A stretch of DNA of 64,000 nucleotides, taken from assembly GCA_002269645.1 (NCBI GenBank), contig NIVC01001165.1, positions 220,261-284,260 on the forward strand, given 5' to 3'. The DNA is from Macrostomum lignano. Taxonomy: Eukaryota. Position numbers and translations under genes: made by a program. The notes under the pieces were generated by a model. The model searched no databases, had not been told where the DNA came from, and worked only from the letters and a program-made list of their open reading frames with translations. Each line of letters begins with the position of its first letter. Position 1 is the stretch's first letter. Positions 238-48,624 of the stretch are shown one piece after another.

Positions 238-1052
238 CAGGACTGGCACCGGTTCTGAGTGTCCTTTAGGACTGGCACCGCTCCTGAGTGTCCTTCAGGA
301 CTGGCACCGCTCCTGAGTGTCCTTCAGGACTGGCACCGCTCCTGAGTGTCCTTCAGGACTGGCACCGCTCCTGAGTGTCCTTCAGGACTGGCACCGCTCC
401 TGAGTGTCCTTCAGGACTGGCACCGCTCCTGAGTGTCCTTCAGGACTGGCACCGCTCCTGAGTGTCCTTCAGGACTGGCACCGCTCCTGAGTGTCCTTCA
501 GGACTGGCACCGGTCCTGAACTGGCACCGCTCCTGAGTGTCCTTCAGGACTGGCACCGCTCCTGAGTGTCCTTCAGGACTGGCACCGGTCCTGAACTGGC
601 ACCGCTCCTGAGTGTCCTTCAGGACTGGCACCGCTCCTGAGTGTCCTTCAGGACTGGCACCGCTCCTGAGTGTCCTTCAGGACTGGCACCGCTCCTGAGT
701 GTCCTTCAGGACTGGCACCGCTCCTGAGTGTCCTTCAGGACTGGCACCGCTCCTGAGTGTCCTTCAGGACTGGCACCGCTCCTGAGTGTCCTTCAGGACT
801 GGCACCGCTCCTGAGTGTCCTTCAGGACTGGCACCGCTCCTGAGTGTCCTTCAGGACTGGCACCGCTCCTGAGTGTCCTTCAGGACTGGCACCGCTCCTG
901 AGTGTCCTTCAGGACTGGCACCGCTCCTGAGTGTCCTTCAGGACTGGCACCGGTCCTGAACTGGCACCGCTCCTGAGTGTCCTTCAGGACTGGCACCGCT
1001 CCTGAGTGTCCTTCAGGACTGGCACCGCTCCTGAGTGTCCTTCAGGACTGGC
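238..1052 (+). repeat. 29-bp minisatellite (CAGGACTGGCACCGCTCCTGAGTGTCCTT), about 28 units
   Basis: Direct tandem units with three 17-bp variant units (CTGGCACCGGTCCTGAA); no unique spacers. Confidence 0.97.
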
Positions 1053-2320
1053 TCCAGGGAACTCCAAGAGAATCGACCGTATTCCAGGGTCATTCATTCT
1101 TCCTCTTTGCTGTTGAGAGTGCGGAGCAGATCTCCTTGCTATTACTCGGCACAGCTCATCTCCCTCGGCACACACCCGGATTTCCCCAACGTTTTCGGAC
1201 CCGAGAACCAACGGCGCTACCCGCTACCTAAGGGCAACCGGGCGAGCGCCATCCACCCCCTGGACCACCGGATCTCCTTGCTTCCAGCTAAGCCCTTTCT
1301 GGACTTCTGATTGAAGATTTCAAGCATGTACTAAAAGCCTTCGATGCTCAACGGTGTTTTCAAAGTCTTCAGATCGATTTCATCAAGTGAGCACTTGTTC
1401 TGCATCATGACCGCACAAGCAGCTTCCCAAACAACATCAAAACCGATAGGTCGAGCAGACAGCTGATCAGGGCACCCGTGGCGAGTTCGCGTCTGCAGCT
1501 GTAACGGATTTATTTAGAGTCCCTTTTGACGTCATGTAGAGGCTCTGCAGCTGGGCTCCGCTAATACAGGGCCTGGGTCTTGACGTCTTTGATTGCTGCA
1601 TAACTATATTAAAAGAGAATCCAAATTGTACAACATCCAACACACAAAAATAAATGGCACAAAATCTTTTCAATCAATCATTCAATCTCGTGAAGCATTC
1701 ATTTCACACATCCACTGAAAAAAACTTGAGTACTTAAACTGGCAAAAAACCAAGATATTATTTAATCCAACGAATTACATTATTCATTACATTATTCATT
1801 ATCTGCCAGAGAACAGTATGATTAGGTCCACAAAATGACTAAAAAACTTTCATTTCTTTGAAACAAGGAATTACATTGAATTAAAAGGTACATTGAAAGG
1901 TGAGTAAGTATCAGGACTCTAAGCCAGAATTCAAAGAGAGAACTGCGTGCTTTGCCAAAACTTGAACATGCGCAGCTTACGGCCAGCCGCTCATATCCGA
2001 ACAGCATGAAATTTGAGTCTCCAACAGGACGCAAAGCTTTCGGGAGGAAAGCAGAGGGCAATAAATAACTGTGACACGACAAATTTCTCTGGCTGACTTC
2101 CGCTTCTACAATGTCTTGAACACAGAAGCGCATTCGCAAAGACTATCAAGGAAAGATTACGAGGAATTGAAACGTTTTGATAAAAAAGGTTGTTAAATTT
2201 CTGGACAAGAAAATTGAAGCGAAAAAGTTTAAATTCTTTGACATAATTTTTACCTCTAAATTGGGGTTCTTAAAGTTCGTCTTCTCTGCACAGTCGCAGC
2301 AGCACCTGTCGCATTCGCAC

Positions 2321-3081
2321 TCAGCGGCGGACAAAGAAGTCGCCGCTGCTGGCGCTGCTGAGCGCGGCCGGGACCGCAGCGAACTCCAGCAGGTGGCACA
2401 GGCGCTGCAGCTGGCTAAAGATCACCGCTTGGCAACCGGAGCGACACCGGTACAAGCACTCGGGCAGCCCAGCACACTGCAGTGTTCTGAAGGCGGGCGC
2501 ATCCGGGAAGCTCAGCTCAACGAACGTCCGGTTACCGGGGACGAACACGTTCCGGTCTGCAGATGTAGAATGGGGCCAGTTGCATTAATGCCAAGCATTT
2601 CTACACAGAAAGCAATTTTTACTTTTAACCTACTCATGCAAGCGTCTTCCGAACTGCCCGTGTAGCTCAGCCGGAGCACGCGGTTTCGAAATTCGCCTCC
2701 GCAGTTCTGGCTTGAGTTTCCACTGCAAACATGGCCGCACTCCCAGTAAGGAGCAGCGCCCAGCGACCCGTAGGAGTTGCCGCAGTAGCACCAGCGTATG
2801 GCCTGCAGAGCCGCGAACCGGAAGCCGCCCAGAGCGCAGGCGCTGCTGCACAGCTCGTGAGTCATCTGGCCGCTGTTGATAGCATAGTCTACCTGAGATA
2901 CGCCGGAGCTACCGATCCGTGTGAGTCCAATGTTCTTCATGCCATCTAAGTCTCTGATGCCATTCTTCGAGTAGTCAACGAAGCAGCCGAGGTCCGAGAT
3001 CTGGAACTGGCGGCAGAGAGCGGCGAAGATGAGGCAGCTCAGGATCGGAGCGCAGAAGCAGGTCCTGTACAGAGCCGGCAT
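2321..3081 (-). CDS. Secreted WSC-domain + PAN/apple-like protein, 2 exons (about 227 aa)
   Basis: Exons 3081-2634 and 2556-2321; the 77-bp intron GTAGGT...CTGCAG joins them in frame. Hydrophobic N-terminus; WSC cysteine pattern LGCFVD...MTHELCSSAC...FAALQ...CYCGN...EC...CSGNSSQNCGG; exon 2 CAGLPECLYRCRSGCQAVIFSQLQRLCHLL is PAN-like. Confidence 0.85.
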
Positions 3082-3699
3082 GGCAGGCTGATTGCCAGTG
3101 CGAATTTCAGAGAAAATTGGCAGAGTTCGGACTCAGAGTAGAGAGAGAGCGGATTCGCAGCGAGAGGCCTCATCGCAGCTGTTTCAAGCGTATTATTTTT
3201 GCTAGGAGAAAGACAATGGGCCTTCAATACAGAACCCATTACGGGTTCGCACAGCCGCGCGAGCCCTGATTGGAATCCGTTGGCTGCAGCCATTGCGTCA
3301 AAGCCAACAGGTGTGAATGAAAAATAGATTTAAATCCATGAATTCCTGGGCTGCAGTTTCAGAAATATTTGCAGCAACAAAGCTTGCTGTGGGCCCTTCA
3401 TCAAGGATGAGTTAGCACATATGAAATAACTGAGCGTCTAATTCAGACGCACAAGGATTTGTTGCACACCTTTGCTGCTCGCATATACTCGCGTTAGACG
3501 AGGCCAAGTAAGAAAAAAAGGGAAGTGAAGTGGCGCGCTTTATTTACTATAAATAATTTACATAATATAGAGAGAGCGATCGAGACAGTCCAATCAGAGG
3601 CTTCTGACGGACTGGTGCAAGGATTTTGCTAGAACTAGAACCTGGACTAGAAACTTTTTTGTGGGGGCGAACTATCTTAGGAATATTAATAGGAAATTA

Positions 3700-4745
3700 C
3701 TCGATCATATACGGCCCTGCTTGCACTTGCAAAACAAGTTCATTAGGTACCGAACCAAATGGTAGGGTATTCTACAGGTATACTTACGCAATCCATACTG
3801 ATACCCACAAAGAACGGAAGAAAAGACCCCGATTTGGATCAACCAAGTTCTTCGAAAAACTCTTCGATATATTTCTGAATTATAAGAATCGTAGAATAGA
3901 GGCAAAATTTGTGTTGCAAACCGCCGTAGGCAATACGAGTAACATTCAGGGCGCAACACAATTTTGTTGACGAGGCCCACAACCAAGAGCATGCGCTAAA
4001 AAGAATCGGATGCTACCACCGCGAGTCAGCTTGAAATACAATTAAAACAGCACCCATATACCACAGTGACCAGCACGAGGGTCCTGAAAAGCACATCAAC
4101 TGTAGGACTGTAGGTCCGATTTCGAAAATCCCCACATTTCCGTCCTATTCACCGTCTAATATTTTCGGGGGGGGACTTAAACTAAGCGATTCAAAATATT
4201 CCACGATTCGTCTTCCGCGACGACCCAACTCGTTTGCTTCTCACCCCTTACTATCCAATGCCTACAAGGAAGCTTCGAAGTGTCTGTATCTAAGGTAATC
4301 GTCGAAGACCTCTGAACGTGTCCTGAGGATGCACACCCAAAAAGACAACACCAAACAATCCCATACATAGATTTTTAATAATTGACCGCAAAAATCTATC
4401 ACTGACACCCTGCAACATATTCAGCTTCACTTCCATGCTTTACCCTGCACGACGTCGCGAAGCTCCGTGATCTGCAGCTGCTTGTCAAATAGACCGCCGA
4501 ATATTAAATTGTAGACAACGCTTGTTGCTTGAGCGAAACGCTACTGACACCCATCATCTCGTCCTTGCAGATACAAGCCCAACTGCTGCAGCAGATAGGC
4601 ATATTCTGTCACACAACTACCTGCACCAAAATTCGTCTTCAGATCTGCAGTCTGCGAACGTGCGAAGGGACCGGACTCCCATTCACAAACACACCAATGC
4701 TGTTGACATTTGCATGTTCAAAATTGAACTGATTTATATCTATAC
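3700..4745 (-). pseudogene. Decayed Polinton/Maverick (adintovirus-like) fragment: major capsid C-terminus, adenain-type cysteine protease, possible minor capsid N-terminus
   Basis: Manual translation across frameshifts and stops. Capsid-like: INQFNFEHANVNSIGVFVNGSPVP, LKTNFGAGSCVTEYAYLLQQLG. Protease motifs in order: FLGVHPQD, LDTDTSKLPCRHW, VEYFESLSLSPP, FQDPRAGHCGIWVLF. Then MLLVLPT...NISKSFSKNL...WVSVWIA, which is weakly minor-capsid-like. Confidence 0.7.
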
Positions 4746-4749
4746 TTAA

Positions 4750-5205
4750 CGCTCTCCTCAGCTTGAAAGGTCGTACGCCGCGTAGGATGGTTTCGACCAC
4801 CGCCTGCCACATCACTGAGCCTTCTGGCGGTCGGGCAGAGCTTCGGACTGGAGGACGGCTCGGATCGAACGGAAAGCCGCCCAGGCAAGTCCTCTGCGCC
4901 GCAGGACGTCCTTTCTAATCGTGGGGCACCACACCGCCGAGGTAGGTAACCACTGGCAGCGTGCGAGCTTGGTCATTTGCCCATCTGCGCCGCGGCAAGT
5001 CAGGTCCGCTGGGATGTCGGCCGGCAAGAACATTCAGCACCTCAATCTTCAGGGTGATGAAAACCAGACCGACGCTCGATGCCACCTCGACCAGCCTGCC
5101 GATTTGCTGCTGAGCGTTCTCAACGGACGAGGACAGGAGGGCGAGGTCGTCGGCGTAGCCAAACACTCTCGGGGCGCTTTTCGCCGTGGTGGCGACTGAT
5201 GCGTC
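4750..5205 (-). mobile_element. Degenerate non-LTR retrotransposon RT fragment (RTE-like)
   Basis: GYADDLALLSS...GL (YADD motif), YLGG, RRRGLAWAAFRSIRAVLQSEALPD.Q.A...QAVVETIL; frameshifted; homologous to the element at 39043-39743. Confidence 0.85.
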
Positions 5206-5756
5206 TGCGCAAATTAACAAAGCAAGAAAACTAAAAGGGAATTAAGAGAGTAGAAAACGAGATAAAATTGCAAAATTGGCCCGTTTACAGTGGGTTTGTG
5301 CAGATGAGCAAAAGCGGAAGGGACAGCTATAGCGGTCCTATGTACTGGAAGGGTACGTATCCAGCGGTTGGACCCGACATTTAGTCCAGGTGGAGCAATC
5401 AGATGGAAGGGAGGCCAACCCAAAGTAAAATAAATTCGCACTTTACAGGGTCCTCAGTTAATGTAGGCCCTGAATAAAGAGCCATTGACCTGCGAGTTTT
5501 TGTAATTTTGTAATTCATAATTTATTTATGATTCATTGTTTATATCTCATCTCCGCCCTCTTAGAAACACCGCGGCTTCGGCGGCAAGGGGTCAATATAG
5601 GGGAGCAAACAAACACTTAGCATCAAATTTACTCCTACTAAACATTGATTGATTTCGATTTAAAAACCGCGGGTCCCCGTGGGTCCCACAGTAAGTGTAG
5701 TGGCCCTGAAAAGGGATGTTTGAATGATTTACCTTTTACTTCTTCAAGCTAGTTTT

Positions 5757-6058
5757 TGAAAAGGTTCATGTTGAGAAGGATTCACATTGAGAAGGCTTCA
5801 TGTTGAGAAGGTTTCATCTGGAGAAGGTTTCATGTTGAGAAGGCTTCATCTTGGGAAGGTTTCATCTTGAGAAGGTTTCATCTTGAGAAGGTTTCATGTT
5901 GAGAAGGTTTCATCTTGAGAAGGTTTCATCTTGAGAAGGTTTCATGTTGAGAAGGTTTCATCTTGAGAAGGTTTCATGTTGAGAAGGTTTCATCTTGAGA
6001 AGGTTTCATGTTGAGAAGGTTTCATGTTGAGAAGGTTTCATCTTTTTTGAGAAGGTTT
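5757..6058 (+). repeat. 16-bp minisatellite (GAGAAGGTTTCAT[C/G]TT), about 18 units; duplicate at 14671-14972
   Basis: Direct tandem units visible. Confidence 0.95.
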
Positions 6059-7354
6059 GATCTGTGTTGCGAGGAACTTGAATCAACTCCCATGAACTGA
6101 ATGGCATGGCTGAATTCGAGTGCGAACTGCTTCAGAGAGCCCGTGACTCTGGCTCGCTGTCACAGCTATTATCACATAATACCTGGCATAAAAAGCCACT
6201 CCAACTGCCTGGCTGTAGGTTGACATTGGTTTCTACTGGTCTTGCCAAGGCAGAGTGCAAAGAGTATAATTGAATTTCAGTAATAATATTCTTAGTTGAA
6301 TCATTTGTTTAGTATTTTTGATATAGCATTAGAATTTTCGAAGTCGATTCTTCTAAGACAATTTAATACTGATAGTAGTACGCTCGTACTTGAGACGCAT
6401 TGCAGAGCTATATGCAGTCAGCAGATGCACAAATAAAATCAGTGGTAAATTTTCTTGTCCTCAATTTGATTCAAATTGTTTTATCTAACCATTAAGTTGG
6501 AAAATATGGGAAGCTACTCGGACGAGCTTAATAGAGAAAATGAAATGTAACGCAAGTGATAAATTAAAATTCTGATTAACAGTAGAAATACCAAGCCATT
6601 TTTCCACCCGTCGAACTACCAAGAGGGGGAGGGGGAGTTCCATGACAAATTTTTGCTGTGCCGCAACGGAGCAACGCAGGCACACAAAATTCAAATAAAT
6701 TTGGCTAAATTCGGGCGACATCGGGCTAAATTTTTGTTGTGATGAGGACGCACTTTTTCCCAAATCCCGCGCTAGCACATGGGCTCTGAATTTACTTGGC
6801 TACTAACAGTGGGCAGTGGGCATTTTTATCCTTTTTCTGCGAATTTTCATAAAATTTATACTAGATATTAATGTCTGGTCATACTAGTAGTCATAAAAAC
6901 ATAGGCGCAGCTTTTTGGGTCATAAATCATCGCTTTCGAAGCTGGTCTGACAGCCACCTGCGCCTCACTCAGTGTTTAGGCGGGTGCCAGATGGTCTGAG
7001 AGGATGCGGGCGGTAGCTTTTTTTCTCATCATTTTGACAGGCCATCAAGATTTATGAGGTCAGAGCCTATTGTTCGTGTTCACTCAAGCGTGTGACAGCT
7101 TTGACAGCTATGCGTTTTACCCCTAAAAGTACCTTGGGATTAGCGATTAGCGATTTCTCTTCATTATCTTCACTTTCTATTTAATAAGAGCTCTCTAATG
7201 TATATTTTTTCATTAATTTCTGTCAATCCTACGTGAAAAGTCATAAATCATTTTGTTGCGATTTTGAGTGATTTATGGCCGCACCTGTCATCTTTTTACG
7301 ACCCTGTGGGAACTGATAGGATCTCTCGGTCACGTGATTCTGGGTAGCAACAAG

Positions 7355-7470
7355 CTTAGCCAATCAGAAAATTCGGCGCTCATTTTAACAAAACGGCTCA
7401 GCCAATGAGAATCGACGTGTTCCATTATAACAAACTGCGGTCCAGTTGGCGGCTATTTAAACCGGAGTTT
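7355..7470 (+). promoter_or_regulatory. Promoter-like cassette (two AGCCAAT boxes + TATTTAAA); duplicate at about 16269-16384
   Basis: TTAGCCAATCAG and TCAGCCAATGAG followed by GGCTATTTAAACC and a GC-rich leader; probably the promoter of a mobile element. Confidence 0.45.
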
Positions 7471-8063
7471 TTGGCCCGCTCGGACTCAAATTTGGCTCGG
7501 GCCCAGCGCGCAACTTCTGGTTCCCAGAGCACGACCGTCGTTTCCTGATCCCCGGATTGCGACTTCCCCCATCATCATCAAGGACGAGTCCCCCGGTCGA
7601 CAGCAGCGAACATCAAGCAAAGATCATCACCTGCAGCTATCAGCGAAGATCGTGACAGCATCATCCCGAGTCTACAGCTGCGAAAAGCACTAAGCCGATT
7701 CGGTCACTGTGGATTACCTGGTCTCCAGCTGATGAGTTTCTGATTGGTTGGGTGAGAGGCTACCTAGGCTTGCTTGATTAGGTGATCCCCTATCTGTCCC
7801 CTGTTTCAGTAGCTGAATTAGGCGCACACTTTTGCTCATTTTGTTCAGTAGTGCTGTTGCTGAGGCAGAAATCATTCAATAATACTGCTAGTAGTCTAAG
7901 ACTCCAATTCAATCTGAAGTGTGAAGTGAACTAAGGAGAAGGTTAAATCTAACAGTTATTGTTATCGGTTTTATTTCTTTGTTCGCCGATGGCTCAGATG
8001 AGTAGCTAAGCTAGTAGGCGCCGGTCACAGTGGACCAATGGCAAGGCAGTCGACCAATCTATC

Positions 8064-9488: not shown

Positions 9489-9967
9489 CAGGACTGGCAC
9501 CGGTTCTGAGTGTCCTTTAGGACTGGCACCGCTCCTGAGTGTCCTTCAGGACTGGCACCGGTCCTGAACTGGCACCGCTCCTGAGTGTCCTTCAGGACTG
9601 GCACCGCTCCTGAGTGTCCTTCAGGACTGGCACCGCTCCTGAGTGTCCTTCAGGACTGGCACCGCTCCTGAGTGTCCTTCAGGACTGGCACCGCTCCTGA
9701 GTGTCCTTCAGGACTGGCACCGCTCCTGAGTGTCCTTCAGGACTGGCACCGCTCCTGAGTGTCCTTCAGGACTGGCACCGCTCCTGAGTGTCCTTCAGGA
9801 CTGGCACCGCTCCTGAGTGTCCTTCAGGACTGGCACCGCTCCTGAGTGTCCTTCAGGACTGGCACCGGTCCTGAACTGGCACCGCTCCTGAGTGTCCTTC
9901 AGGACTGGCACCGCTCCTGAGTGTCCTTCAGGACTGGCACCGCTCCTGAGTGTCCTTCAGGACTGGC
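9489..9967 (+). repeat. 29-bp minisatellite, copy 2 (336 bp shorter)
   Basis: Same unit as 238-1052. The length difference of 336 equals 11x29 + 17. Confidence 0.95.
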
Positions 9968-11235
9968 TCCAGGGAACTCCAAGAGAATCGACCGTATTCC
10001 AGGGTCATTCATTCTTCCTCTTTGCTGTTGAGAGTGCGGAGCAGATCTCCTTGCTATTACTCGGCACAGCTCATCTCCCTCGGCACACACCCGGATTTCC
10101 CCAACGTTTTCGGACCCGAGAACCAACGGCGCTACCCGCTACCTAAGGGCAACCGGGCGAGCGCCATCCACCCCCTGGACCACCGGATCTCCTTGCTTCC
10201 AGCTAAGCCCTTTCTGGACTTCTGATTGAAGATTTCAAGCATGTACTAAAAGCCTTCGATGCTCAACGGTGTTTTCAAAGTCTTCAGATCGATTTCATCA
10301 AGTGAGCACTTGTTCTGCATCATGACCGCACAAGCAGCTTCCCAAACAACATCAAAACCGATAGGTCGAGCAGACAGCTGATCAGGGCACCCGTGGCGAG
10401 TTCGCGTCTGCAGCTGTAACGGATTTATTTAGAGTCCCTTTTGACGTCATGTAGAGGCTCTGCAGCTGGGCTCCGCTAATACAGGGCCTGGGTCTTGACG
10501 TCTTTGATTGCTGCATAACTATATTAAAAGAGAATCCAAATTGTACAACATCCAACACACAAAAATAAATGGCACAAAATCTTTTCAATCAATCATTCAA
10601 TCTCGTGAAGCATTCATTTCACACATCCACTGAAAAAAACTTGAGTACTTAAACTGGCAAAAAACCAAGATATTATTTAATCCAACGAATTACATTATTC
10701 ATTACATTATTCATTATCTGCCAGAGAACAGTATGATTAGGTCCACAAAATGACTAAAAAACTTTCATTTCTTTGAAACAAGGAATTACATTGAATTAAA
10801 AGGTACATTGAAAGGTGAGTAAGTATCAGGACTCTAAGCCAGAATTCAAAGAGAGAACTGCGTGCTTTGCCAAAACTTGAACATGCGCAGCTTACGGCCA
10901 GCCGCTCATATCCGAACAGCATGAAATTTGAGTCTCCAACAGGACGCAAAGCTTTCGGGAGGAAAGCAGAGGGCAATAAATAACTGTGACACGACAAATT
11001 TCTCTGGCTGACTTCCGCTTCTACAATGTCTTGAACACAGAAGCGCATTCGCAAAGACTATCAAGGAAAGATTACGAGGAATTGAAACGTTTTGATAAAA
11101 AAGGTTGTTAAATTTCTGGACAAGAAAATTGAAGCGAAAAAGTTTAAATTCTTTGACATAATTTTTACCTCTAAATTGGGGTTCTTAAAGTTCGTCTTCT
11201 CTGCACAGTCGCAGCAGCACCTGTCGCATTCGCAC

Positions 11236-11996
11236 TCAGCGGCGGACAAAGAAGTCGCCGCTGCTGGCGCTGCTGAGCGCGGCCGGGACCGCAGCGAACT
11301 CCAGCAGGTGGCACAGGCGCTGCAGCTGGCTAAAGATCACCGCTTGGCAACCGGAGCGACACCGGTACAAGCACTCGGGCAGCCCAGCACACTGCAGTGT
11401 TCTGAAGGCGGGCGCATCCGGGAAGCTCAGCTCAACGAACGTCCGGTTACCGGGGACGAACACGTTCCGGTCTGCAGATGTAGAATGGGGCCAGTTGCAT
11501 TAATGCCAAGCATTTCTACACAGAAAGCAATTTTTACTTTTAACCTACTCATGCAAGCGTCTTCCGAACTGCCCGTGTAGCTCAGCCGGAGCACGCGGTT
11601 TCGAAATTCGCCTCCGCAGTTCTGGCTTGAGTTTCCACTGCAAACATGGCCGCACTCCCAGTAAGGAGCAGCGCCCAGCGACCCGTAGGAGTTGCCGCAG
11701 TAGCACCAGCGTATGGCCTGCAGAGCCGCGAACCGGAAGCCGCCCAGAGCGCAGGCGCTGCTGCACAGCTCGTGAGTCATCTGGCCGCTGTTGATAGCAT
11801 AGTCTACCTGAGATACGCCGGAGCTACCGATCCGTGTGAGTCCAATGTTCTTCATGCCATCTAAGTCTCTGATGCCATTCTTCGAGTAGTCAACGAAGCA
11901 GCCGAGGTCCGAGATCTGGAACTGGCGGCAGAGAGCGGCGAAGATGAGGCAGCTCAGGATCGGAGCGCAGAAGCAGGTCCTGTACAGAGCCGGCAT
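11236..11996 (-). CDS. Secreted WSC + PAN-like protein, duplicate copy
   Basis: Identical to 2321-3081 at +8915 (exons 11996-11549, 11471-11236). Confidence 0.85.
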
Positions 11997-12614
11997 GGCA
12001 GGCTGATTGCCAGTGCGAATTTCAGAGAAAATTGGCAGAGTTCGGACTCAGAGTAGAGAGAGAGCGGATTCGCAGCGAGAGGCCTCATCGCAGCTGTTTC
12101 AAGCGTATTATTTTTGCTAGGAGAAAGACAATGGGCCTTCAATACAGAACCCATTACGGGTTCGCACAGCCGCGCGAGCCCTGATTGGAATCCGTTGGCT
12201 GCAGCCATTGCGTCAAAGCCAACAGGTGTGAATGAAAAATAGATTTAAATCCATGAATTCCTGGGCTGCAGTTTCAGAAATATTTGCAGCAACAAAGCTT
12301 GCTGTGGGCCCTTCATCAAGGATGAGTTAGCACATATGAAATAACTGAGCGTCTAATTCAGACGCACAAGGATTTGTTGCACACCTTTGCTGCTCGCATA
12401 TACTCGCGTTAGACGAGGCCAAGTAAGAAAAAAAGGGAAGTGAAGTGGCGCGCTTTATTTACTATAAATAATTTACATAATATAGAGAGAGCGATCGAGA
12501 CAGTCCAATCAGAGGCTTCTGACGGACTGGTGCAAGGATTTTGCTAGAACTAGAACCTGGACTAGAAACTTTTTTGTGGGGGCGAACTATCTTAGGAATA
12601 TTAATAGGAAATTA

Positions 12615-13659
12615 CTCGATCATATACGGCCCTGCTTGCACTTGCAAAACAAGTTCATTAGGTACCGAACCAAATGGTAGGGTATTCTACAGGTATACTT
12701 ACGCAATCCATACTGATACCCACAAAGAACGGAAGAAAAGACCCCGATTTGGATCAACCAAGTTCTTCGAAAAACTCTTCGATATATTTCTGAATTATAA
12801 GAATCGTAGAATAGAGGCAAAATTTGTGTTGCAAACCGCCGTAGGCAATACGAGTAACATTCAGGGCGCAACACAATTTTGTTGACGAGGCCCACAACCA
12901 AGAGCATGCGCTAAAAAGAATCGGATGCTACCACCGCGAGTCAGCTTGAAATACAATTAAAACAGCACCCATATACCACAGTGACCAGCACGAGGGTCCT
13001 GAAAAGCACATCAACTGTAGGACTGTAGGTCCGATTTCGAAAATCCCCACATTTCCGTCCTATTCACCGTCTAATATTTTCGGGGGGGACTTAAACTAAG
13101 CGATTCAAAATATTCCACGATTCGTCTTCCGCGACGACCCAACTCGTTTGCTTCTCACCCCTTACTATCCAATGCCTACAAGGAAGCTTCGAAGTGTCTG
13201 TATCTAAGGTAATCGTCGAAGACCTCTGAACGTGTCCTGAGGATGCACACCCAAAAAGACAACACCAAACAATCCCATACATAGATTTTTAATAATTGAC
13301 CGCAAAAATCTATCACTGACACCCTGCAACATATTCAGCTTCACTTCCATGCTTTACCCTGCACGACGTCGCGAAGCTCCGTGATCTGCAGCTGCTTGTC
13401 AAATAGACCGCCGAATATTAAATTGTAGACAACGCTTGTTGCTTGAGCGAAACGCTACTGACACCCATCATCTCGTCCTTGCAGATACAAGCCCAACTGC
13501 TGCAGCAGATAGGCATATTCTGTCACACAACTACCTGCACCAAAATTCGTCTTCAGATCTGCAGTCTGCGAACGTGCGAAGGGACCGGACTCCCATTCAC
13601 AAACACACCAATGCTGTTGACATTTGCATGTTCAAAATTGAACTGATTTATATCTATAC
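12615..13659 (-). pseudogene. Polinton/Maverick-like fragment, duplicate copy
   Basis: Same sequence as 3700-4745 at +8915/+8914. Confidence 0.7.
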
Positions 13660-13663
13660 TTAA

Positions 13664-14119
13664 CGCTCTCCTCAGCTTGAAAGGTCGTACGCCGCGTAGG
13701 ATGGTTTCGACCACCGCCTGCCACATCACTGAGCCTTCTGGCGGTCGGGCAGAGCTTCGGACTGGAGGACGGCTCGGATCGAACGGAAAGCCGCCCAGGC
13801 AAGTCCTCTGCGCCGCAGGACGTCCTTTCTAATCGTGGGGCACCACACCGCCGAGGTAGGTAACCACTGGCAGCGTGCGAGCTTGGTCATTTGCCCATCT
13901 GCGCCGCGGCAAGTCAGGTCCGCTGGGATGTCGGCCGGCAAGAACATTCAGCACCTCAATCTTCAGGGTGATGAAAACCAGACCGACGCTCGATGCCACC
14001 TCGACCAGCCTGCCGATTTGCTGCTGAGCGTTCTCAACGGACGAGGACAGGAGGGCGAGGTCGTCGGCGTAGCCAAACACTCTCGGGGCGCTTTTCGCCG
14101 TGGTGGCGACTGATGCGTC
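13664..14119 (-). mobile_element. Non-LTR RT fragment, duplicate copy
   Basis: Same as 4750-5205 at +8914. Confidence 0.85.
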
Positions 14120-15493
14120 TGCGCAAATTAACAAAGCAAGAAAACTAAAAGGGAATTAAGAGAGTAGAAAACGAGATAAAATTGCAAAATTGGCCCGTTT
14201 ACAGTGGGTTTGTGCAGATGAGCAAAAGCGGAAGGGACAGCTATAGCGGTCCTATGTACTGGAAGGGTACGTATCCAGCGGTTGGACCCGACATTTAGTC
14301 CAGGTGGAGCAATCAGATGGAAGGGAGGCCAACCCAAAGTAAAATAAATTCGCACTTTACAGGGTCCTCAGTTAATGTAGGCCCTGAATAAAGAGCCATT
14401 GACCTGCGAGTTTTTGTAATTTTGTAATTCATAATTTATTTATGATTCATTGTTTATATCTCATCTCCGCCCTCTTAGAAACACCGCGGCTTCGGCGGCA
14501 AGGGGTCAATATAGGGGAGCAAACAAACACTTAGCATCAAATTTACTCCTACTAAACATTGATTGATTTCGATTTAAAAACCGCGGGTCCCCGTGGGTCC
14601 CACAGTAAGTGTAGTGGCCCTGAAAAGGGATGTTTGAATGATTTACCTTTTACTTCTTCAAGCTAGTTTTTGAAAAGGTTCATGTTGAGAAGGATTCACA
14701 TTGAGAAGGCTTCATGTTGAGAAGGTTTCATCTGGAGAAGGTTTCATGTTGAGAAGGCTTCATCTTGGGAAGGTTTCATCTTGAGAAGGTTTCATCTTGA
14801 GAAGGTTTCATGTTGAGAAGGTTTCATCTTGAGAAGGTTTCATCTTGAGAAGGTTTCATGTTGAGAAGGTTTCATCTTGAGAAGGTTTCATGTTGAGAAG
14901 GTTTCATCTTGAGAAGGTTTCATGTTGAGAAGGTTTCATGTTGAGAAGGTTTCATCTTTTTTGAGAAGGTTTGATCTGTGTTGCGAGGAACTTGAATCAA
15001 CTCCCATGAACTGAATGGCATGGCTGAATTCGAGTGCGAACTGCTTCAGAGAGCCCGTGACTCTGGCTCGCTGTCACAGCTATTATCACATAATACCTGG
15101 CATAAAAAGCCACTCCAACTGCCTGGCTGTAGGTTGACATTGGTTTCTACTGGTCTTGCCAAGGCAGAGTGCAAAGAGTATAATTGAATTTCAGTAATAA
15201 TATTCTTAGTTGAATCATTTGTTTAGTATTTTTGATATAGCATTAGAATTTTCGAAGTCGATTCTTCTAAGACAATTTAATACTGATAGTAGTACGCTCG
15301 TACTTGAGACGCATTGCAGAGCTATATGCAGTCAGCAGATGCACAAATAAAATCAGTGGTAAATTTTCTTGTCCTCAATTTGATTCAAATTGTTTTATCT
15401 AACCATTAAGTTGGAAAATATGGGAAGCTACTCGGACGAGCTTAATAGAGAAAATGAAATGTAACGCAAGTGATAAATTAAAATTCTGATTAA

Positions 15494-18250
15494 CAGTAGA
15501 AATACCAAGCCATTTTTCCACCCGTCGAACTACCAAGAGGGGGAGGGGGAGTTCCATGACAAATTTTTGCTGTGCCGCAACGGAGCAACGCAGGCACACA
15601 AAATTCAAATAAATTTGGCTAAATTCGGGCGACATCGGGCTAAATTTTTGTTGTGATGAGGACGCACTTTTTCCCAAATCCCGCGCTAGCACATGGGCTC
15701 TGAATTTACTTGGCTACTAACAGTGGGCAGTGGGCATTTTTATCCTTTTTCTGCGAATTTTCATAAAATTTATACTAGATATTAATGTCTGGTCATACTA
15801 GTAGTCATAAAAACATAGGCGCAGCTTTTTGGGTCATAAATCATCGCTTTCGAAGCTGGTCTGACAGCCACCTGCGCCTCACTCAGTGTTTAGGCGGGTG
15901 CCAGATGGTCTGAGAGGATGCGGGCGGTAGCTTTTTTTCTCATCATTTTGACAGGCCATCAAGATTTATGAGGTCAGAGCCTATTGTTCGTGTTCACTCA
16001 AGCGTGTGACAGCTTTGACAGCTATGCGTTTTACCCCTAAAAGTACCTTGGGATTAGCGATTAGCGATTTCTCTTCATTATCTTCACTTTCTATTTAATA
16101 AGAGCTCTCTAATGTATATTTTTTCATTAATTTCTGTCAATCCTACGTGAAAAGTCATAAATCATTTTGTTGCGATTTTGAGTGATTTATGGCCGCACCT
16201 GTCATCTTTTTACGACCCTGTGGGAACTGATAGGATCTCTCGGTCACGTGATTCTGGGTAGCAACAAGCTTAGCCAATCAGAAAATTCGGCGCTCATTTT
16301 AACAAAACGGCTCAGCCAATGAGAATCGACGTGTTCCATTATAACAAACTGCGGTCCAGTTGGCGGCTATTTAAACCGGAGTTTTTGGCCCGCTCGGACT
16401 CAAATTTGGCTCGGGCCCAGCGCGCAACTTCTGGTTCCCAGAGCACGACCGTCGTTTCCTGATCCCCGGATTGCGACTTCCCCCATCATCATCAAGGACG
16501 AGTCCCCCGGTCGACAGCAGCGAACATCAAGCAAAGATCATCACCTGCAGCTATCAGCGAAGATCGTGACAGCATCATCCCGAGTCTACAGCTGCGAAAA
16601 GCACTAAGCCGATTCGGTCACTGTGGATTACCTGGTCTCCAGCTGATGAGTTTCTGATTGGTTGGGTGAGAGGCTACCTAGGCTTGCTTGATTAGGTGAT
16701 CCCCTATCTGTCCCCTGTTTCAGTAGCTGAATTAGGCGCACACTTTTGCTCATTTTGTTCAGTAGTGCTGTTGCTGAGGCAGAAATCATTCAATAATACT
16801 GCTAGTAGTCTAAGACTCCAATTCAATCTGAAGTGTGAAGTGAACTAAGGAGAAGGTTAAATCTAACAGTTATTGTTATCGGTTTTATTTCTTTGTTCGC
16901 CGATGGCTCAGATGAGTAGCTAAGCTAGTAGGCGCCGGTCACAGTGGACCAATGGCAAGGCAGTCGACCAATCTATCAAATCAGTGAGCAAAACTGCCAG
17001 AAGTGCAGAATCGGCGCCAGAGATGTACTTTGTGCACTCTAGGGTAGCCAAGCGGCTCGGGTAAATGAATCATGCGGTCTCTGAAGTTCGAGTTAGCCTA
17101 TCATCAGCGCTATGAGAGGCTAGTTGGTGCGTTGAAGGCCAAAAGTACATATTTTCGTATTTAGCAATGTAATAGTACATGTAGCTACCCCATAGTCTCG
17201 CCACTGCAAGAATCCCCTGCACAAGTCCCCTCTGTACCTGCATGGCCAATGCGATCTAGTCCCAGCAGTGTCCCTTATCATCGGCTATGACTTCGAGATT
17301 GACAGCAAAAAGACACTAGTTGGCAGGTAAGTGCAAAGCCCCTTCTAGTCGGAAGCCCGATTTCGAGAGTCCCGGTGTGGTGAGCCAGGACGTACGGGCT
17401 GGTGGCAGCAAGTTAGTTGATCTGCGGATTAGCTAATTTCTACTTTCAAAATTCTCCCTGCTCGTCTCTCGCTGTCCCTCTCTTAGCTATAGGACCTAGA
17501 CTGCTCGCCACACGATCAAGCTACCATGGAGCTGACAATCTGACAGGAGTGGGGGGCCAGGACTCTAATTGATTTATTTCTGAGCCTGAGGCCCGAAGGC
17601 TTCCCTAACAAGGAGCCCGAAGGTCGAAACCCATCAGTTGCGCAATATCTCAACCAAGAATCAAGTCGCCAGCCCTCCGGACCGTCGAGATATTCGACGA
17701 TTCTGCCAGGTCGGATTTCTCCCTTAAGTGCTAGTGTATTCAGTACACCCCTGTGTGCCAATCAGCACTTCGCCTCAGAGCAGCCTTGCCAAGCCTCCAA
17801 ATTTCATCAGCACGTCGATCACATGTGTCTGCGTCAGCTCTACCTTCGTTAGTCACTGGCCTTTACCGAGACGGAGCTTCTAGACCTTCAACAGGTCGCA
17901 CCAGGTGACTATGGACACCCTGATACGAATTTCTCTAGTTTCGCTGATCAAGCGTCGACAGTGCAGGGCAAGCCTTAACTGCTAACATCATCAGCTTAGT
18001 CTCTCGAAAGCATTTTCCGTCATCACCTCAACGCCGTCGGCACCTTCAACAGATTACACCAGGTGACTATGAGCAGCCTGATGCGGATTTCTCTCATTGG
18101 CTGGGGACGGCGACTTGATTTTTGGTTGAGAAGAAGGTGCGCAACAATAAGTTAGCTCGTGAATTTCGTGTGCTTGCGTTACTCCGTTCCGGCGCAGCAA
18201 AAAATTGTCAGGGGGGGGGGGGGATTTCCCCCCTCTTGGTAGTTCTACTG
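15494..18250. mobile_element. Candidate TIR element with TTAA flanks
   Basis: 15494-15607 and about 18160-18250 are imperfect inverted copies (right arm internally deleted), both ending CAGTAGAA/TTCTACTG. TTAA lies at 15490-15493 and 18251-18254. Confidence 0.5.
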
Positions 18251-35570: not shown

Positions 35571-36386
35571 AAGCAAGCAGTACCCTGTCTTGACTGTCAA
35601 CTTAAGCGCTCTGTGCAAAGGGTCCCCAAATTGTAAGCAAGTCTAAACACCAGGCAGTTCAGAATGGCTGCAGTTGAGCTCTTTCAGTCGAGTTTCTGAG
35701 CTTCTGTCGAGCTGAACTCCTGCCTCTCACGGCACCGAGCCCGATGCTTCTGCGTGATTGAGCATCAGCATAGCGGTGAGCAGCAGCACCAGCTACCCTT
35801 AGCGACATTCTCACAACCAACGTGCATCCGGAGCTGCTCTTATTTATTTCCGACCTTTCGACAGCTCGGAAACGACCACGACCGTCGAGCCACTTTCGGC
35901 AGCGCTCACTGCGCTGAACATGATGAAGAAGGCCTCCTTAACTTGCCCCTGACTGATCATGCAGCTTCTTGACGGCGGTGACGGCCAGCACAGCAGTTGA
36001 AATCGCAGCCCAGATGGACAGGCAGATGCGGGCCTTGGTGGAGAACTGACCGATCCGCTTATTCGTCATATTCGCAATGCCAGCGCATGCCGGGCTCGGG
36101 CGAATCTCGGCAATGCGAGCTGGGCTTTCTGTCTTGAAAGCGGTGTTTGCAGCAGCTCTGATGAGGCTTGGCAGAGCCTGGCCTGAGAGCACTGGCAGCT
36201 GCTGCGAATGAGCGGGACGATAAAGCCGCAAGCGAATTCCAAACTGACGACTCTGCTCCCCCGATGAGTCTTGCGTTGCGACTCAAATGACTCGATGCGA
36301 CTCTGAGCACATGAGACGAAAAGGGTGACCCAAAAGTTCGGTTCTGTTCCATGGAATCCCGTCTGATTGCATAAACCCTGAACACA

Positions 36387-37827
36387 CAGCACAATACTGA
36401 TAGAACAGACAGCACAATACTGATAGAACAGACAGCACAATACTGATAGAACAGACAGCACAATACTGATAGAACAGACAGCACAATACTGATAGAACAG
36501 ACAGCACAATACTGATAGAACAGACAGCACAATACTGATAGAACAGACAGCACAATACTGTTAGAACAGACAGCACAATACTGATAGAACAGACAGCACA
36601 ATACTGATAGAACAGACAGCACAATACCGATAGAACAGACAGCACAATACTGATAGAACAGACAGCACAATACTGATAGAACAGACAGCACAATACTGAT
36701 AGAACAGACAGCACAATACTGATAGAACAGACAGCACAATACTGATAGAACAGACAGCACAATACTGATAGAACAGACAGCACAATACTGATAGAACAGA
36801 CAGCACAATACTGATAGAACAGACAGCACAATACTGATAGAACAGACAGCACAATACTGATAGAACAGACAGCACAATACTGATAGAACAGACAGCACAA
36901 TACTGATAGAACAGACAGCACAATACTGATAGAACAGACAGCACAATACTGATAGAACAGACAGCACAATACTGATAGAACAGACAGCACAATACTGATA
37001 GAACAGACAGCACAATACTGTTAGAACAGACAGCACAATACTGATAGAACAGACAGCACAATACTGATAGAACAGACAGCACAATACCGATAGAACAGAC
37101 AGCACAATACTGATAGAACAGACAGCACAATACTGATAGAACAGACAGCACAATACTGATAGAACAGACAGCACAATACTGATAGAACAGACAGCACAAT
37201 ACTGATAGAACAGACAGCACAATACTGATAGAACAGACAGCACAATACTGATAGAACAGACAGCACAATACTGATAGAACAGACAGCACAATACTGATAG
37301 AACAGACAGCACAATACTGATAGAACAGACAGCACAATACTGATAGAACAGACAGCACAATACTGATAGAACAGACAGCACAATACTGATAGGACAGACA
37401 GCACAATACTGATAGAACAGACAGCACAATACTGATAGAACAGACAGCACAATACTGATAGAACAGACAGCACAATACTGATAGAACAGACAGCACAATA
37501 CTGATAGAACAGACAGCACAATACTGATAGAGCACACAGCACAATACTGATAGAACAGACAGCACAATACTGATAGAACAGACAGCACAATACTGATAGA
37601 ACAGACAGCACAATACTGATAGAACAGACAGCACAATACTGATAGAACAGACAGCACAATACTGATAGAACAGACAGCACAATACTGATAGAACAGACAG
37701 CACAATACTGATAGAACAGACTGCACAATACTGATAGAACAGACAGCACAATACTGATAGAACAGACAGCACAATACTGATAGAACAGACAGCACAATAC
37801 TGATAGAACAGACAGCACAATACTGAT
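36387..37827 (+). repeat. 23-bp minisatellite (CAGCACAATACTGATAGAACAGA), about 63 units
   Basis: Direct tandem units. Confidence 0.97.
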
Positions 37828-41100: not shown

Positions 41101-44100
41101 GAGGTGAAAATTTTTAACAAAGAAGAAATACCCGAAATAACGGAATTCCTAGATGCGTTTCTAATGTGTAGAAGCATCGAAAAAATTAGCTACGAAAGCA
41201 ACAAGAATGAATACCGAATGATAGGAACTGCACTTTATTCAATGATTATACGCTGGTATTATTGGTATGCTCATAGTGCGAATCCTGAACTTGTCTAAAA
41301 TGAAGCAACACGAAGGCACCAAAGATGACAATGAACTATCCTCAAAATGAAAGCGTCGAAAAAAACTTTGATTAGTAAAGACTTCAAGGGAAGTGGTCAA
41401 GTAAAGTAAAAGACAGTTAGTAAAGTGGTTGTCACACATAATATTCTGGATGAAGACTGTAAATAGTAGGGACGAGCCGGGCTACGAATACGGATGCCTG
41501 TACGGGCTAGCTTATCTGGAGTATCCTCTGGCTATCAAATGACGTGACACCCACGAAGACGCAGAGATGGTTGTACGCTCGTACGTAAATATCATCGAAT
41601 ATGGTTGAACAGTTGCGTTGTGAGAGAGTGCAGCGCTTAAGATGTGTCTCGACAATGTTTTGACAGCCATGTAGAAATCTGCCCCAACTGTTCCCATGTG
41701 CCGTTTTGAGAGTCGAGGCTCCGCTTGCTTCATTCTAGCATCCTCCGGCCAATACTTGCGGCATACGCCCATGTGTGCAGTGAAATGTTACCCTACCTTT
41801 GCTGCAATGGCAAAGCTTTCATCCAGGAGTCAACCTTCCTCTTCTTTCAGAAAAGTAATGTAATACACGGTGCACCTTTCACCGCTTTTGTAGTGCTGAT
41901 GCAGCCTGAAGTTGTTGTAGTTGTAGTTGTTGTTACAACTAACCCTAACAGGAGTCTGCAACACTTCTTCGGTATCTTGTATAACTTAACTGAATTTGAA
42001 GCAAAAAAATAAGAGATTCCGAGAACGCAAAGAAGTTAGCTGTTTGCTCTGTCTACTTGATGCTCTATGCTAGACTTATAGGCTATCATGCTGCGCTGCT
42101 ATGCGAATTACTAAGCAAAAATGGCACTAAAACCATAGACACTAGCGGCATTTTAAAGCGGCATTTTAAAATTCTATCAATATTTGCAAGTGTACCGTCC
42201 TGTGTTGTTAAGTAGTCCTTGGGTTGCCATTGTCCATTTCATTCACCGATTATGTCTACTGACAGAATTTTTGTTGCAGAAGAGGAATCTTCCATTTCAG
42301 TTTTGGGAATTCAGCCGTCTCTGAGATGCCGATCGGGTGCTATTGTTGAAGGTCCCGACGGTCGCCGCCGATGCTCCAGACGGGGATGAAGGGGGCCCTG
42401 GTGTCTGGGATGCTGAGAGCAACCCTGCGACTGATAAGCATAGTTTGTTGAGCCAACGTGGTGTCATGATGAAATTATTTAAGCCGAAAATTTTTGCCAA
42501 TGTTGGTGGTTTTTGCCACCAGACACCTACTTTCTACCGCCAATGCTTGATGCGAGCGATACCAAGTCAGCCACTAACGAATCTTTAACCGGGTGACTCC
42601 TTCGAAATACTTTGATTTCACTAAAAAAACATGCAACTCAATATTTTATGTTCATGTTAAAACTCTACGCTCGTAAATCATCTAAAAAAACATGGTGGAA
42701 TATGGATTCAGGTTTCTCCTCGAACTAAGAATCAAAGATGACAGTAACTCAACATTTTAAGTCAGCTGAGCAGCGAATCCTTCAATTCCCATTCCATCAA
42801 TTCAATGCATTCCGCCATTCACTTAGAATGAGTCACCTAGCCTTCGCTTAGAAGGAGCGGTTCGAAATCTGCTCCCACTACTGACACACAATATTAGCTG
42901 GTACGAGTACAAAACTGCCGCTCACCGATCCAGAAGTCAGTGCTGTCACCGAAGCCAGTCTCGTACTCAGTCCAATTTCGTTGGAAACTCACACTGCCAG
43001 TGAGTCGCTGCTGAATCTTCACAAACCAGCGACCGTCTGGCAGGAACGCCACTGTGCGTTGGGCAAAGGCACCTTGCAGTCTGACGCAGGACTTAAGACT
43101 GGAGCAGCTGACTGCACCTTCAGACGCTTTCATTCTCCATGATGAAGTGATTTTGCTGGACTTGGAGAGGCACTGCTCAGCAACTAGCGACGTAACCCGC
43201 CACTGCACGTGTCGCCACAGGTCAGCGGGCTCTGCCAGCACAGCAGACCCGGAAATTGTCAAATCCATTTTTAAACGGCACAGAAAAAATTTAAAAAGAA
43301 AAGAAACAAATACAAACGCATCGAAAGCCTGATCTGACCGCTCAATAGCACCCAAGCTGACACTAAAGAGATTTTGTATTACTCTCGCTAACACTCAAGA
43401 TGTCCTGTTAAGTAAACAGCATCTAAAAAACAAAACTGAAATTTCGAATTTGGTGCAATGAAATTTTAAAACCCCTCAGAAAAATCAGCCAACCTAAGAT
43501 GGCGGCACTCCGTCAAGGTTCTGCAGAGCAGCCGCAGCTGAGCGGACCTCCAGTCTGCCGACGCCATCAGCGGACCGACCTCGAACCGAGAACTCAGCGA
43601 AGAGCTCACCGATCTCTCAGCAGTCCACAGCCGCATGAAATCGACCGAGCGAGGCGACAAGTCGGCCAACTGAGTCCTCACAGCATCGCGTGTGGCCTCA
43701 TCTTGCAGCACCAGATCCAGCTTCAGATAGTGCATGTCTCGGCTGTAGTCATACCTGACTGACTCGCTGCTCAAGCTGGAGACGTTGTGGCACAGCAGAG
43801 GCTCGATGAGGAAATGGCCCTTGATGTCGAGTCTCTGGTGCACTCGGGCAGAGCAGTTCTCGAGATTGACGGTGCGGATGAATTTCAGCTGTCGGCATGT
43901 CGGCAGAGGTGAGAATCTTTGCTGGTGCAAGTCCAGATCGAAAATGCTGTCGTTTTGCAGCAGGACGCGGCTCTGAACCTCATGACAAGATCCGTTTGAA
44001 ACGATAAAAGCTGATAACTTTACTTTTTCAAGAGCCTCTCGTGGTGAGCTTTTAAAGTCATCAATGCGCTTCAGCTGGGCCCTTACTGATTGAAAATACC

Positions 44101-44635
44101 GGAGGGGTAAATTTTCCTTTAAAATCTTTGGACCTGAAACTTTACTTGAATCGTTCTTCAAAACAATCCTTTTGAAGCCGAGTCTCAGAGTGGCTACTGA
44201 CTCATTCGGAGTCCACAGAAAGCCCAAAACCCGAATCGATGAGCGGGTGTCGGCTGAGACGCTGATGTTGGTCACCGTGGCGAAGCTCACAGACCTCGGT
44301 GACAGATGCCGAAGTTGAAACTGAGCCTCTGCAAGCATCCCAGCATCCTTCATCAATACAGGAACGCTGAAGTACAGTTGCTGGGTGATGAAGTCGAATC
44401 GGGGAACAATGCCTCTCAGGCTGTCCGTCACGCACATGAGCGGCTCGACTGCCAAGTGCGGACCGTCGCTCGCTCCCGTGTCGTGCACGAACAGCGCGCA
44501 GCCGTTCACGCTGAGCTGCGCCACGAAGCGGAGCCGCGGAGAGTCAGCGGGAGCGCACTGGGAGACCTGGCCGGCTGCCAGCGAGCAGAGCAGCAGAGCC
44601 AACGCTGCAGAAACTCGCAACTGAAAGAGCTGCAT
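38163..44635 (-). CDS. Secreted fibrinogen-domain (FReD) protein, paralogue 1, 3 exons; intron 1 acceptor non-canonical
   Basis: Exons 44635-43494, 43248-42926, 38578-38163. Signal peptide MQLFQLRVSAALALLLCSLAAG; FReD motifs IQQR..GSVSFQRNWTEYETGFG...FWIG|LSAIH..., FSTMDRDND...C...GGWWF..C...NPNG. The expected acceptor reads CCGG rather than CAG. Confidence 0.75.
38920..39005 (+). repeat. 15-bp repeat (GGTGCTGCTCTGGCT) x5-6
   Basis: Direct reading. Confidence 0.9.
39043..39743 (-). mobile_element. 5'-truncated RTE-like non-LTR retrotransposon in FReD-1 intron 2
   Basis: ORF end YLGG...AWAAFRSI...FQAVIETVLLYNAETWTLT...LQLAGHVIR...LKRAI*; (TTG)n 3' tail at 39043-39061; candidate TSD AAAAGTCCA (39034-39042, 39744-39752); three 19-bp repeats at the 5' junction. 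Confidence 0.88.
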
Positions 44636-46836: not shown

Positions 46837-48074
46837 TCTTTTGATGATTTTAACTGATTTCATGTGCAACCTGTAAAAAATCTCATATGAATGTCCAGAG
46901 TCTCCTGCTGCTGTTTGCTGAAGGTGCCCACTGCGTCTGGATGATGACCGAAAGCTTGAGAATCTAGATGAGGCCTCAACCCATTGTCACCTGTCGGATC
47001 AACCAGTGGGTGACTTCAAAGCACTGGGAGAGGTGCATCAGCTGACGCCACCGACTGCCGGCAATCCCGCGCGGCTGTCCCCCCTGTCCTTTTCCCGCCC
47101 TCCGAAGGGCCCCACTTGGACTCCACCGAGGGGACATCAGGGCGGGGACCATGGCCCTCTCTGGACATGCCTGTTTTGCCAGGCATCGTCACCTCAAGGG
47201 TAAAATCCGTAGCGAGGAATACCCATTCTGCCTCTCCAGTGTCGAGAGTGGGAGCACTTCATCTGTGATTTCCCGCCTTTACTCACGACTGGCTCCTGTA
47301 AGCACTCTGGGCAAAGGGTCCCCAAATTGTAAGCGAATCTAAACGCCACGCAGTTCAGAATGACTGCAGTTGAGCTCTTTCAGTCGAGTTTCTGAGCTTC
47401 TGTCGAGCTGAACTCCTGCCTCTTCACGGCAACAAGCATCATGCTTATGTGTGACTGAGCATCAGCATAGCGGTGAGCAGCAGCACAAGCTACCCTTAGC
47501 GACATTCTCACAACCAACGTCCATCCGGAGCTTCTCTTGACGATTTCCTCAGCTCGGAAACGACCACGACCGTCGAGCCACTTTCGGCAGCGCTCACTGC
47601 GCTGAACATGATGAAGAAGGCCTCCTTAACTTGCCCCTGACTGATCATGCAGCTTCTTGACGGCGGTGACGGCCAGCACAGCAGTTGAAATCGCAGCCCA
47701 GATGGACAGGCAGATGCGGGCCTTGGTGGAGAACTGACCGATCCGCTTATTCGTCATATTCGCAATGCCAGCGCATGCCGGGCTCGGGCGAATCTCGGCA
47801 ATGCGAGCTGGGCTTTCTGTCTTGAAAGCGGTGTTTGCAGCAGCTCTGATGAGGCTTGGCAGAGCCTGGCCTGAGAGCACTGGCAGCTGCTGCGAATGAG
47901 CGGGACGATAAAGCCGCAAGCGAATTCCAAACTGACGACTCTGCTCCCCCGATGAGTCTTGCGTTGCGACTCAAATGACTCGATGCGACTCTGAGCACAT
48001 GAGACGAAAAGGGTGACCCAAAAGTTCGGTTCTGTTCCATGGAATCCCGTCTGATTGCATAAACCCTGAACACA

Positions 48075-48624
48075 CAGCACAATACTGATAGAACAGACAG
48101 CACAATACTGATAGAACAGACAGCACAATACTGATAGAACAGACAGCACAATACTGATAGAACAGACAGCACAATACTGATAGAACAGACAGCACAATAC
48201 TGATAGAACAGACAGCACAATACTGATAGAACAGACAGCACAATACTGATAGAACAGACAGCACAATACTGATAGAACAGACAGCACAATACCGATAGAA
48301 CAGACAGCACAATACTGATAGAACAGACAGCACAATACTGATAGAACAGACAGCACAATACTGATAGAACAGACAGCACAATACTGATAGAACAGACAGC
48401 ACAATACTGATAGAACAGACAGCACAATACTGATAGAACAGACAGCACAATACTGATAGAACAGACAGCACAATACTGATAGAACAGACAGCACAATACT
48501 GATAGAACAGACAGCACAATACTGATAGAACAGACAGCACAATACTGATAGAACAGACAGCACAATACTGATAGAACAGACAGCACAATACTGATAGAAC
48601 AGACAGCACAATACTGATAGAACA
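48075..48624 (+). repeat. 23-bp minisatellite, second locus, about 24 units
   Basis: Same unit and same left flank as 36387. Confidence 0.97.

Follow-up and report, generated by a model that had tools for sequence, protein, structure and literature searches.

A probable right-end fossil of a Polinton/Maverick element upstream of a WSC-domain gene in Macrostomum lignano

Introduction

The closest described systems to the locus reported here are the Polinton/Maverick elements and the alpha adintoviruses. Degraded Mavericks are the rule, making up 96% of vertebrate loci according to PMC8097293, and intact vertebrate Mavericks are described as intronless (PMC4028283, PMC8097293). The copy in the window, by which we mean the whole 64-kb stretch of DNA analysed, is a degraded fossil as are most vertebrate Maverick loci, and the comparison below concerns its full-length relatives in the same genome. 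These resemble Polintons/Mavericks, as described in the same two papers, in their length of 18.8-18.9 kb, in terminal inverted repeats with (AGT)2..(ACT)2 ends, in a 6-bp target-site duplication, and in encoding pPolB, an rve integrase, a putative ATPase, a predicted double jelly-roll major capsid protein (MCP) and a cysteine protease; the end motifs and the duplication length agree with the description in PMC8097293. They differ in the additional presence of a dUTPase, a deoxynucleoside kinase, a TBP-like gene and a predicted GT-AG intron in pPolB. TBP in Polinton-like elements is mentioned in a figure legend of PMC8502044, for non-animal elements.

The likeness to alpha adintoviruses, as these are presented in PMC8502044, consists of an animal host, a PF03175-type PolB, an rve integrase, an adenain-like protease, a parvovirus-type PLA2 and a pX-like ORF. 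The difference from that account is that PLA2 and the pX-like protein occupy separate ORFs here, with no single PLA2X. The adintovirus PolB is also described there as carrying an N-terminal OTU domain; for the family PolB the Pfam search gave PF03175 and no OTU family entry. The comparison is one of genes. In a search of the open literature, none of the best 20 of 231 papers listed mentions the genus Macrostomum, and no paper on Polintons in Macrostomum lignano was found.

Results and discussion

The interval 3682-4747 on the minus strand of the window very probably represents the right-hand terminal part, about 1.07 kb, of a Polinton/Maverick element, with the capsid C-terminus, the protease and the terminal repeat all broken or decayed; it is likely an inert fossil, carried along passively when the block containing the WSC gene was copied. 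The features of the locus are as follows.

4748 to 5211, minus strand: LINE reverse-transcriptase remnant, joined in mid-ORF to the capsid gene at 4748/4747 (dispersed copies, RVT_1 in relatives, junction alignment)
4430 to 4747, minus strand: C-terminal third of the MCP gene (residues about 305-441), frameshifted, with one in-frame stop and an internal loss of about 110 bp (tblastn, DNA alignment, stop count, fold of the family MCP)
4445 to 4540, minus strand: 32 capsid-derived codons forming an 'exon' of the UniRef model A0A1I8GM60 (mapping of the gene model)
3894 to 4436, minus strand: whole cysteine-protease gene with several frame-changing indels and stops (tblastn, alignment, family match to ASFV pS273R)
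3821 to 3893, minus strand: non-coding spacer between protease and terminal repeat (alignment to the non-coding 3' part of C2529, which has stops in all three frames there)
3682 to 3820, minus strand: decayed right terminal inverted repeat, shorter than that of C2529 by about one internal sub-repeat (blastn, end alignment, sub-repeat comparison)
2634 to 3081, minus strand: host WSC-domain gene, first coding exon; it has an ATG of its own and encodes a hydrophobic N-terminus (PF01822, E 6e-14; hydropathy)
about 12597 to 13661, minus strand: second copy of the relic in the 8.9-kb tandem unit (unit 595-8063 versus 9522-16977, 99.8%)

Manual and scripted translation of the minus strand over 3400-5000 gave capsid-like and then protease-like peptides, scattered over three frames with stops and including the motifs GVHPQD, DTDT..PCRHW, EYFES..PP and QDPRAGHCG. 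The earlier note had read capsid-like followed by adenain-like motifs in this order, and the reading is borne out by tblastn searches whose queries were same-genome relatives with open frames: MCP residues 305-441 match 4746-4430 (E 3e-26), and protease residues 1-186 match 4436-3894 (E 1e-25). The protease keeps its His (4260-4258), Gln (4086-4084) and Cys (4065-4063) codons, and the acidic position reads Glu (4192-4190), but these lie in different frames. Searches with foreign proteins were also positive for both capsid and protease. A foreign MCP profile, built from 90 homologues after removal of the own-genome entry and the three closest, scored 14.1 bits on the relic, whereas 200 shuffles, each read in six frames, reached at most 8.9; two of three foreign proteases matched (P0095, E 2e-9; P0096, E 2e-8), and the third, P0097, gave no match to the relic. 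Pfam on the three minus frames of the relic gave no capsid or protease family, the sole entry being a weak PAX match (E 0.13).

The relic is 76-84% identical to full-length elements in DNA alignment. By blastn, window 3745-4545 aligns at 76% into the 196-bp terminal repeat of C2529. Beyond this, 3739-3684 can be aligned with the terminal 75 nt of C2529 at a score of 40, reached by none of 500 shuffles; against the end of C889 the score is 30, reached by one of 500. The position of the relic, earlier given as 3700-4745, is hence right as to location, and its right end has to be moved, the element continuing past 3700 to about 3682-3684. A stretch of the terminal repeat had been taken for the weak start of a minor capsid gene, a proposal that fails: two penton-like proteins give no match to 3400-4000 (best E 0.94 and 1.3), and the stretch is terminal-repeat DNA. 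The candidate peptide itself, EYPTIW at about 3775-3755, sits within the repeat, and the penton-like gene of the family lies upstream, in the part that was lost. These results establish the capsid, protease and terminal-repeat identities of the parts of the relic and the loss of its coding capacity. The relic amounts to about 6% of the element length; pPolB and integrase are present in the family elements and absent from the window, and 14 other element proteins had no match anywhere in the 64 kb.

Searching the genome to which the window belongs (764 Mb) at the DNA level gave at least 50 matches from 40 scored candidates. The matches listed include both window copies, close copies on C1070 (94%) and C136 (96%), and, at 73-91%, many relatives. 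Two of the relatives are full-length:

C889, 26751 to 45674: 18.9 kb, terminal inverted repeats of 130 bp, target-site duplication GGGGAA
C2529, 17164 to 35936: 18.8 kb, terminal inverted repeats of 196 bp, target-site duplication CAGGTC

Both have AGTAGT..ACTACT at their termini, and a 6-bp duplication was found in two of two full-length relatives as well as in a short derivative, L019. The Polinton/Maverick origin put forward in the earlier note is thus confirmed by same-genome relatives with terminal inverted repeats, 6-bp duplications and core genes, and the intact relatives that it suggested looking for do exist, at 18.8-18.9 kb and with pPolB, integrase and a putative ATPase. The target-site duplication applies to these relatives only, since the left end of the window copy is gone.

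The gene order of the full elements is TBP-like, deoxynucleoside kinase, pPolB, dUTPase, PLA2, putative ATPase, penton-like, pX-like, a 236-aa ORF, integrase, a basic 143-aa ORF, capsid, protease and terminal repeat. The protease is the last gene, with only non-coding DNA and the terminal repeat beyond. Several of the assignments are supported by Pfam: pPolB of C889 by PF03175 (E 1.7e-21), the PLA2 ORF, separate from the pX-like ORF, by PF08398 (E 1.2e-9), and the pX-like ORF by PF05829 (E 7e-5). The integrase of C889 has a chromo-like tail and matches rve, PF00665, at E 2.6e-6; its 28.1 bits fall short of the cut-off, 32.6, which is exceeded by a homologue in L038 with 31% identity. The putative FtsK/A32-like packaging ATPase of the family matches Pox_A32 below the cut-off (E 0.0021) and contains a Walker A-like GPAMSGKT. 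The 331-aa ORF between the ATPase and the pX-like gene, for which Pfam gave no match, is one that we take from its motifs to be a putative penton gene.

Some further properties of the family were observed. In pPolB (frame L029:2436-6263, minus strand) an Endonuclease VII domain (PF02945, E 1.6e-9) directly precedes the polymerase domain. A short GT-AG stretch interrupts pPolB at the same place in both full copies (L029, about 2390-2470, minus strand; L032, about 5775-5850, plus strand), presumably between polymerase motifs B and C. Its sequence is unconserved and its flanks are conserved, and it is likely a spliceosomal intron, as predicted from sequence; six stretches spanning both full-length elements gave no Rfam match to a group I intron. 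The TBP-like protein of the full-length relatives (L031:8609-9595, plus strand; L029:6863-7774, minus strand; L051-L056) matches PF00352 at E 8e-7, above the cut-off in one copy, and its AlphaFold model, made without an alignment, is unusable (pLDDT 40). The TBP-like gene has 72 matches in the genome and lies beside pPolB sequence in all six sampled loci, with the deoxynucleoside kinase between them in five. By 6-mer count, the word TATAAG precedes two of 14 gene starts in C889 and the same two in C2529, and it is absent from 3082-4760 of the window. A 2.1-kb non-autonomous derivative (L019:18-2153, G000:C1729) retains the terminal repeats of both ends and a portion of the protease, with a 6-bp duplication, CCTAGA; at least about a dozen genome matches begin at query position 462, as this one does, and such short elements may form a family. 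A second, distant Polinton (L038:4859-10000, G000:C1070), with 31% identity to the first family in integrase and 33% in capsid, is situated on C1070 a few kb upstream of the block.

Open frames of 441 aa for the capsid and 187 aa for the protease were found in three relatives, C1390, C889 and C2529. The 441-aa MCP has 94 homologues in sequence search, and its fold, predicted with 93 of them as alignment, has a pLDDT of 91. A fold search with this model returned the capsids of Sputnik (3j26), PBCV-1 (Vp54) and mavirus (6g44) at E 2e-17 to 5e-16 and TM 0.57-0.68, and on the predicted structure the family protein is a double jelly-roll MCP. Its identification came from the fold search and not from the sequence searches: Pfam gave nothing on the MCP, and the profile search of PDB sequences gave nothing significant (three weak matches, E 0.26-0.81). 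The virophage and NCLDV capsids match in fold but with 12-14% identity, and of the family protein the relic retains the C-terminal third only.

The family protease matches ASFV pS273R (PDB 6lj9) at E 1.9e-6, and its motifs align with the NTD..G.HW, EYF.S.G..PP and Q....CG motifs of pS273R and the clan CE maturation proteases. In Pfam it has a weak match to Peptidase_C48 (E 0.033) and none to the adenain model C5, which the relative P0097 does match (E 0.0022). The adenain identity claimed earlier can therefore be kept in the sense of a clan CE, adenain-like protease, whereas the family protein lacks the specific C5 match. Unlike pS273R, the protease in the window is split over three frames and would yield no protein.

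On its other side the relic abuts a LINE remnant, 36 of whose 40 matches are dispersed copies at 87-88% and whose relatives contain RVT_1 (E 5e-15). In the junction alignment, LINE similarity extends to 4748 and the capsid starts at 4747. The LINE neighbour described in the earlier note is thus real, but its view that the fragment was cut there by a LINE is less favoured, as the LINE is broken within its frame, a few hundred bases before its usual 3' end. Since the LINE's own 3' end is missing and the break is in mid-ORF, a deletion junction is preferred over a LINE insertion, and a LINE body fused to the capsid gene by deletion is likely the simplest reading.

The codon positions tell something of the history of the relic. 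Relative to C2529, changes in the relic capsid are flat across codon positions (8/100, 8/99, 10/97), which fits neutral decay; two open-frame capsid copies differ at third positions only (0/136, 0/136, 8/136). The relic protease has a third-position excess (28/175, 17/174, 47/177), which suggests that part of its divergence predates decay and that the parent belonged to a diverged subfamily. The direct parent was not found in the DNA search of the genome.

The same block is present on three contigs in four copies. The window and C1070 copies have in common the large deletion in the capsid and five indels in the protease, the exact indel counts being alignment-dependent, and these shared lesions make it likely that the relic had already died when the WSC block was duplicated. 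The zones of the relic differ by 1.5-6% between copies, like the flanks. Divergence is among the lowest in the terminal-repeat zone (2/136 sites in both comparisons, which are small numbers), and it is equally low in a neighbouring host zone (3-4/281). In the C136 copy a Ty3/gypsy-type LTR element sits in the protease relic (L040:350-5448); it has 216-bp LTRs at 99% and a 5-bp duplication, and is a young insertion. As a separate observation, the WSC exon 2634-3081 is 11.7% different from C1070 (L037), where most neighbouring zones differ by 0-6% and the adjacent intron by 7.8%. For this exon pS is 0.165 and pN 0.106, the difference from C136 is 1.1%, and the divergence suggests that paralogous WSC genes have undergone gene conversion or recombination with one another.

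A sequence of events can be proposed from these comparisons. By means of its integrase, a member of a sister subfamily would have inserted itself some 600 bp upstream of WSC, and the inserted element would have decayed neutrally. A deletion would have taken about 17.8 kb of it and joined the remainder to a LINE body; neutral decay or deletion may have come first. Duplication of the LINE-relic-WSC block would then have given rise to the copies on C1070 and C136, which differ by a few percent; one of the copies would later have gained the Ty3/gypsy element, and the window pair would have arisen last.

That the block occurs four times, and that a short two-ended Polinton derivative exists (the 2.1-kb element with the CCTAGA duplication), might suggest that it is the cargo of a still-mobile non-autonomous unit, its movement aided by the Polinton end. 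We find this hardly credible: the block has a single terminal repeat with altered last bases, and similarity between the copies continues past the terminus in both directions, through host gene and flanks, until it dies out in satellite arrays, which is the pattern expected of segmental duplication. The copy boundaries examined so far never fall at the repeat end and are without a 6-bp duplication. Passive copying by segmental duplication is accordingly the reading kept here.

Amplification of the relic with the 8.9-kb unit, noted earlier, holds, the relic of the second copy differing by a single 1-bp gap and by no substitution. Over 1100-5750 as a whole the two window copies show no substitutions and small gaps only, and they are either a very recent duplication or an assembly artefact. 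The identity of the copies and the location of the unit borders within minisatellite arrays would suit an artefact in place of a tandem duplication, with the relic itself real, but the block is duplicated with real divergence on C1070 and C136, so the region does duplicate, and we consider an artefact rather unlikely. The identity of the relic is unaffected by this alternative. Further dispersed duplications occur in the window (35603-36936 versus 47299-48624, 97%; 43492-44635 versus 53076-54219, 95%), together with many minisatellite arrays. The only tRNA-like Rfam match in the window, at 61231-61300 on the minus strand (34.4 bits), may be a SINE head or a pseudogene.

The relic lies, as had been reported, about 600 bp upstream of the WSC gene on the same strand, the WSC ATG at 3081 being 600 bp from the element end. 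From this ATG the WSC gene encodes a hydrophobic leader, and a contig in run X12 joins across its first intron, GT-AG, at 2557-2633. The family capsid search returned UniRef A0A1I8GM60, labelled as a Macrostomum lignano WSC-domain protein. It maps to the block as LINE sequence, 32 capsid codons (4540-4445, matching the window at 100%), WSC exons and minisatellite, with no start Met, and looks like an artefact of gene prediction.

The model does make a capsid-WSC join, and one may ask whether the WSC gene has recruited the relic as a promoter or upstream exon, with a young putative donor at about 4443 linking WSC to the 32 capsid codons or to a 5' leader. Two recent substitutions in the window lineage would then have made a splice donor in a dead capsid gene, adding the leader or the 32 codons to a secreted WSC protein in these two copies only. 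The donor-like CAGG/GTAAAG is indeed two substitutions from the family sequence, and a pyrimidine-rich acceptor stands directly before the WSC ATG in three of three copies checked. However, the donor-like site is confined to the two window copies and missing from the sister copies on C1070 and C136, the WSC frame has an ATG and hydrophobic leader of its own, and the gene model, besides having no start Met, begins in the LINE and ends in translated minisatellite. Trans-splicing occurs in flatworms, and the acceptor could equally serve that process. Contigs from four presumed-RNA runs, of 24, contain no 4444-3132 join, which we do not count as evidence, contigs showing presence and not absence; the deeper contigs over the relic in these four runs carry family-type letters. 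Taken together, we regard co-option of the relic, and with it such exonisation, as very improbable, and prefer an inert fossil next to a WSC gene that starts at its own ATG.

Conclusions

The locus is a fossil of the ordinary sort, left by an element of a known kind, and to the extent of the tests made its family belongs to the Polintons/Mavericks of alpha-adintovirus type. As a fossil the relic is of little importance in itself; it marks a Polinton family with full-length, open-frame copies and short non-autonomous derivatives in this genome. It also explains the chimeric protein A0A1I8GM60, which could mislead capsid searches. If a capsid piece were truly spliced into the WSC gene, it would be a dated case of a relic of a DNA virus entering a host transcript.
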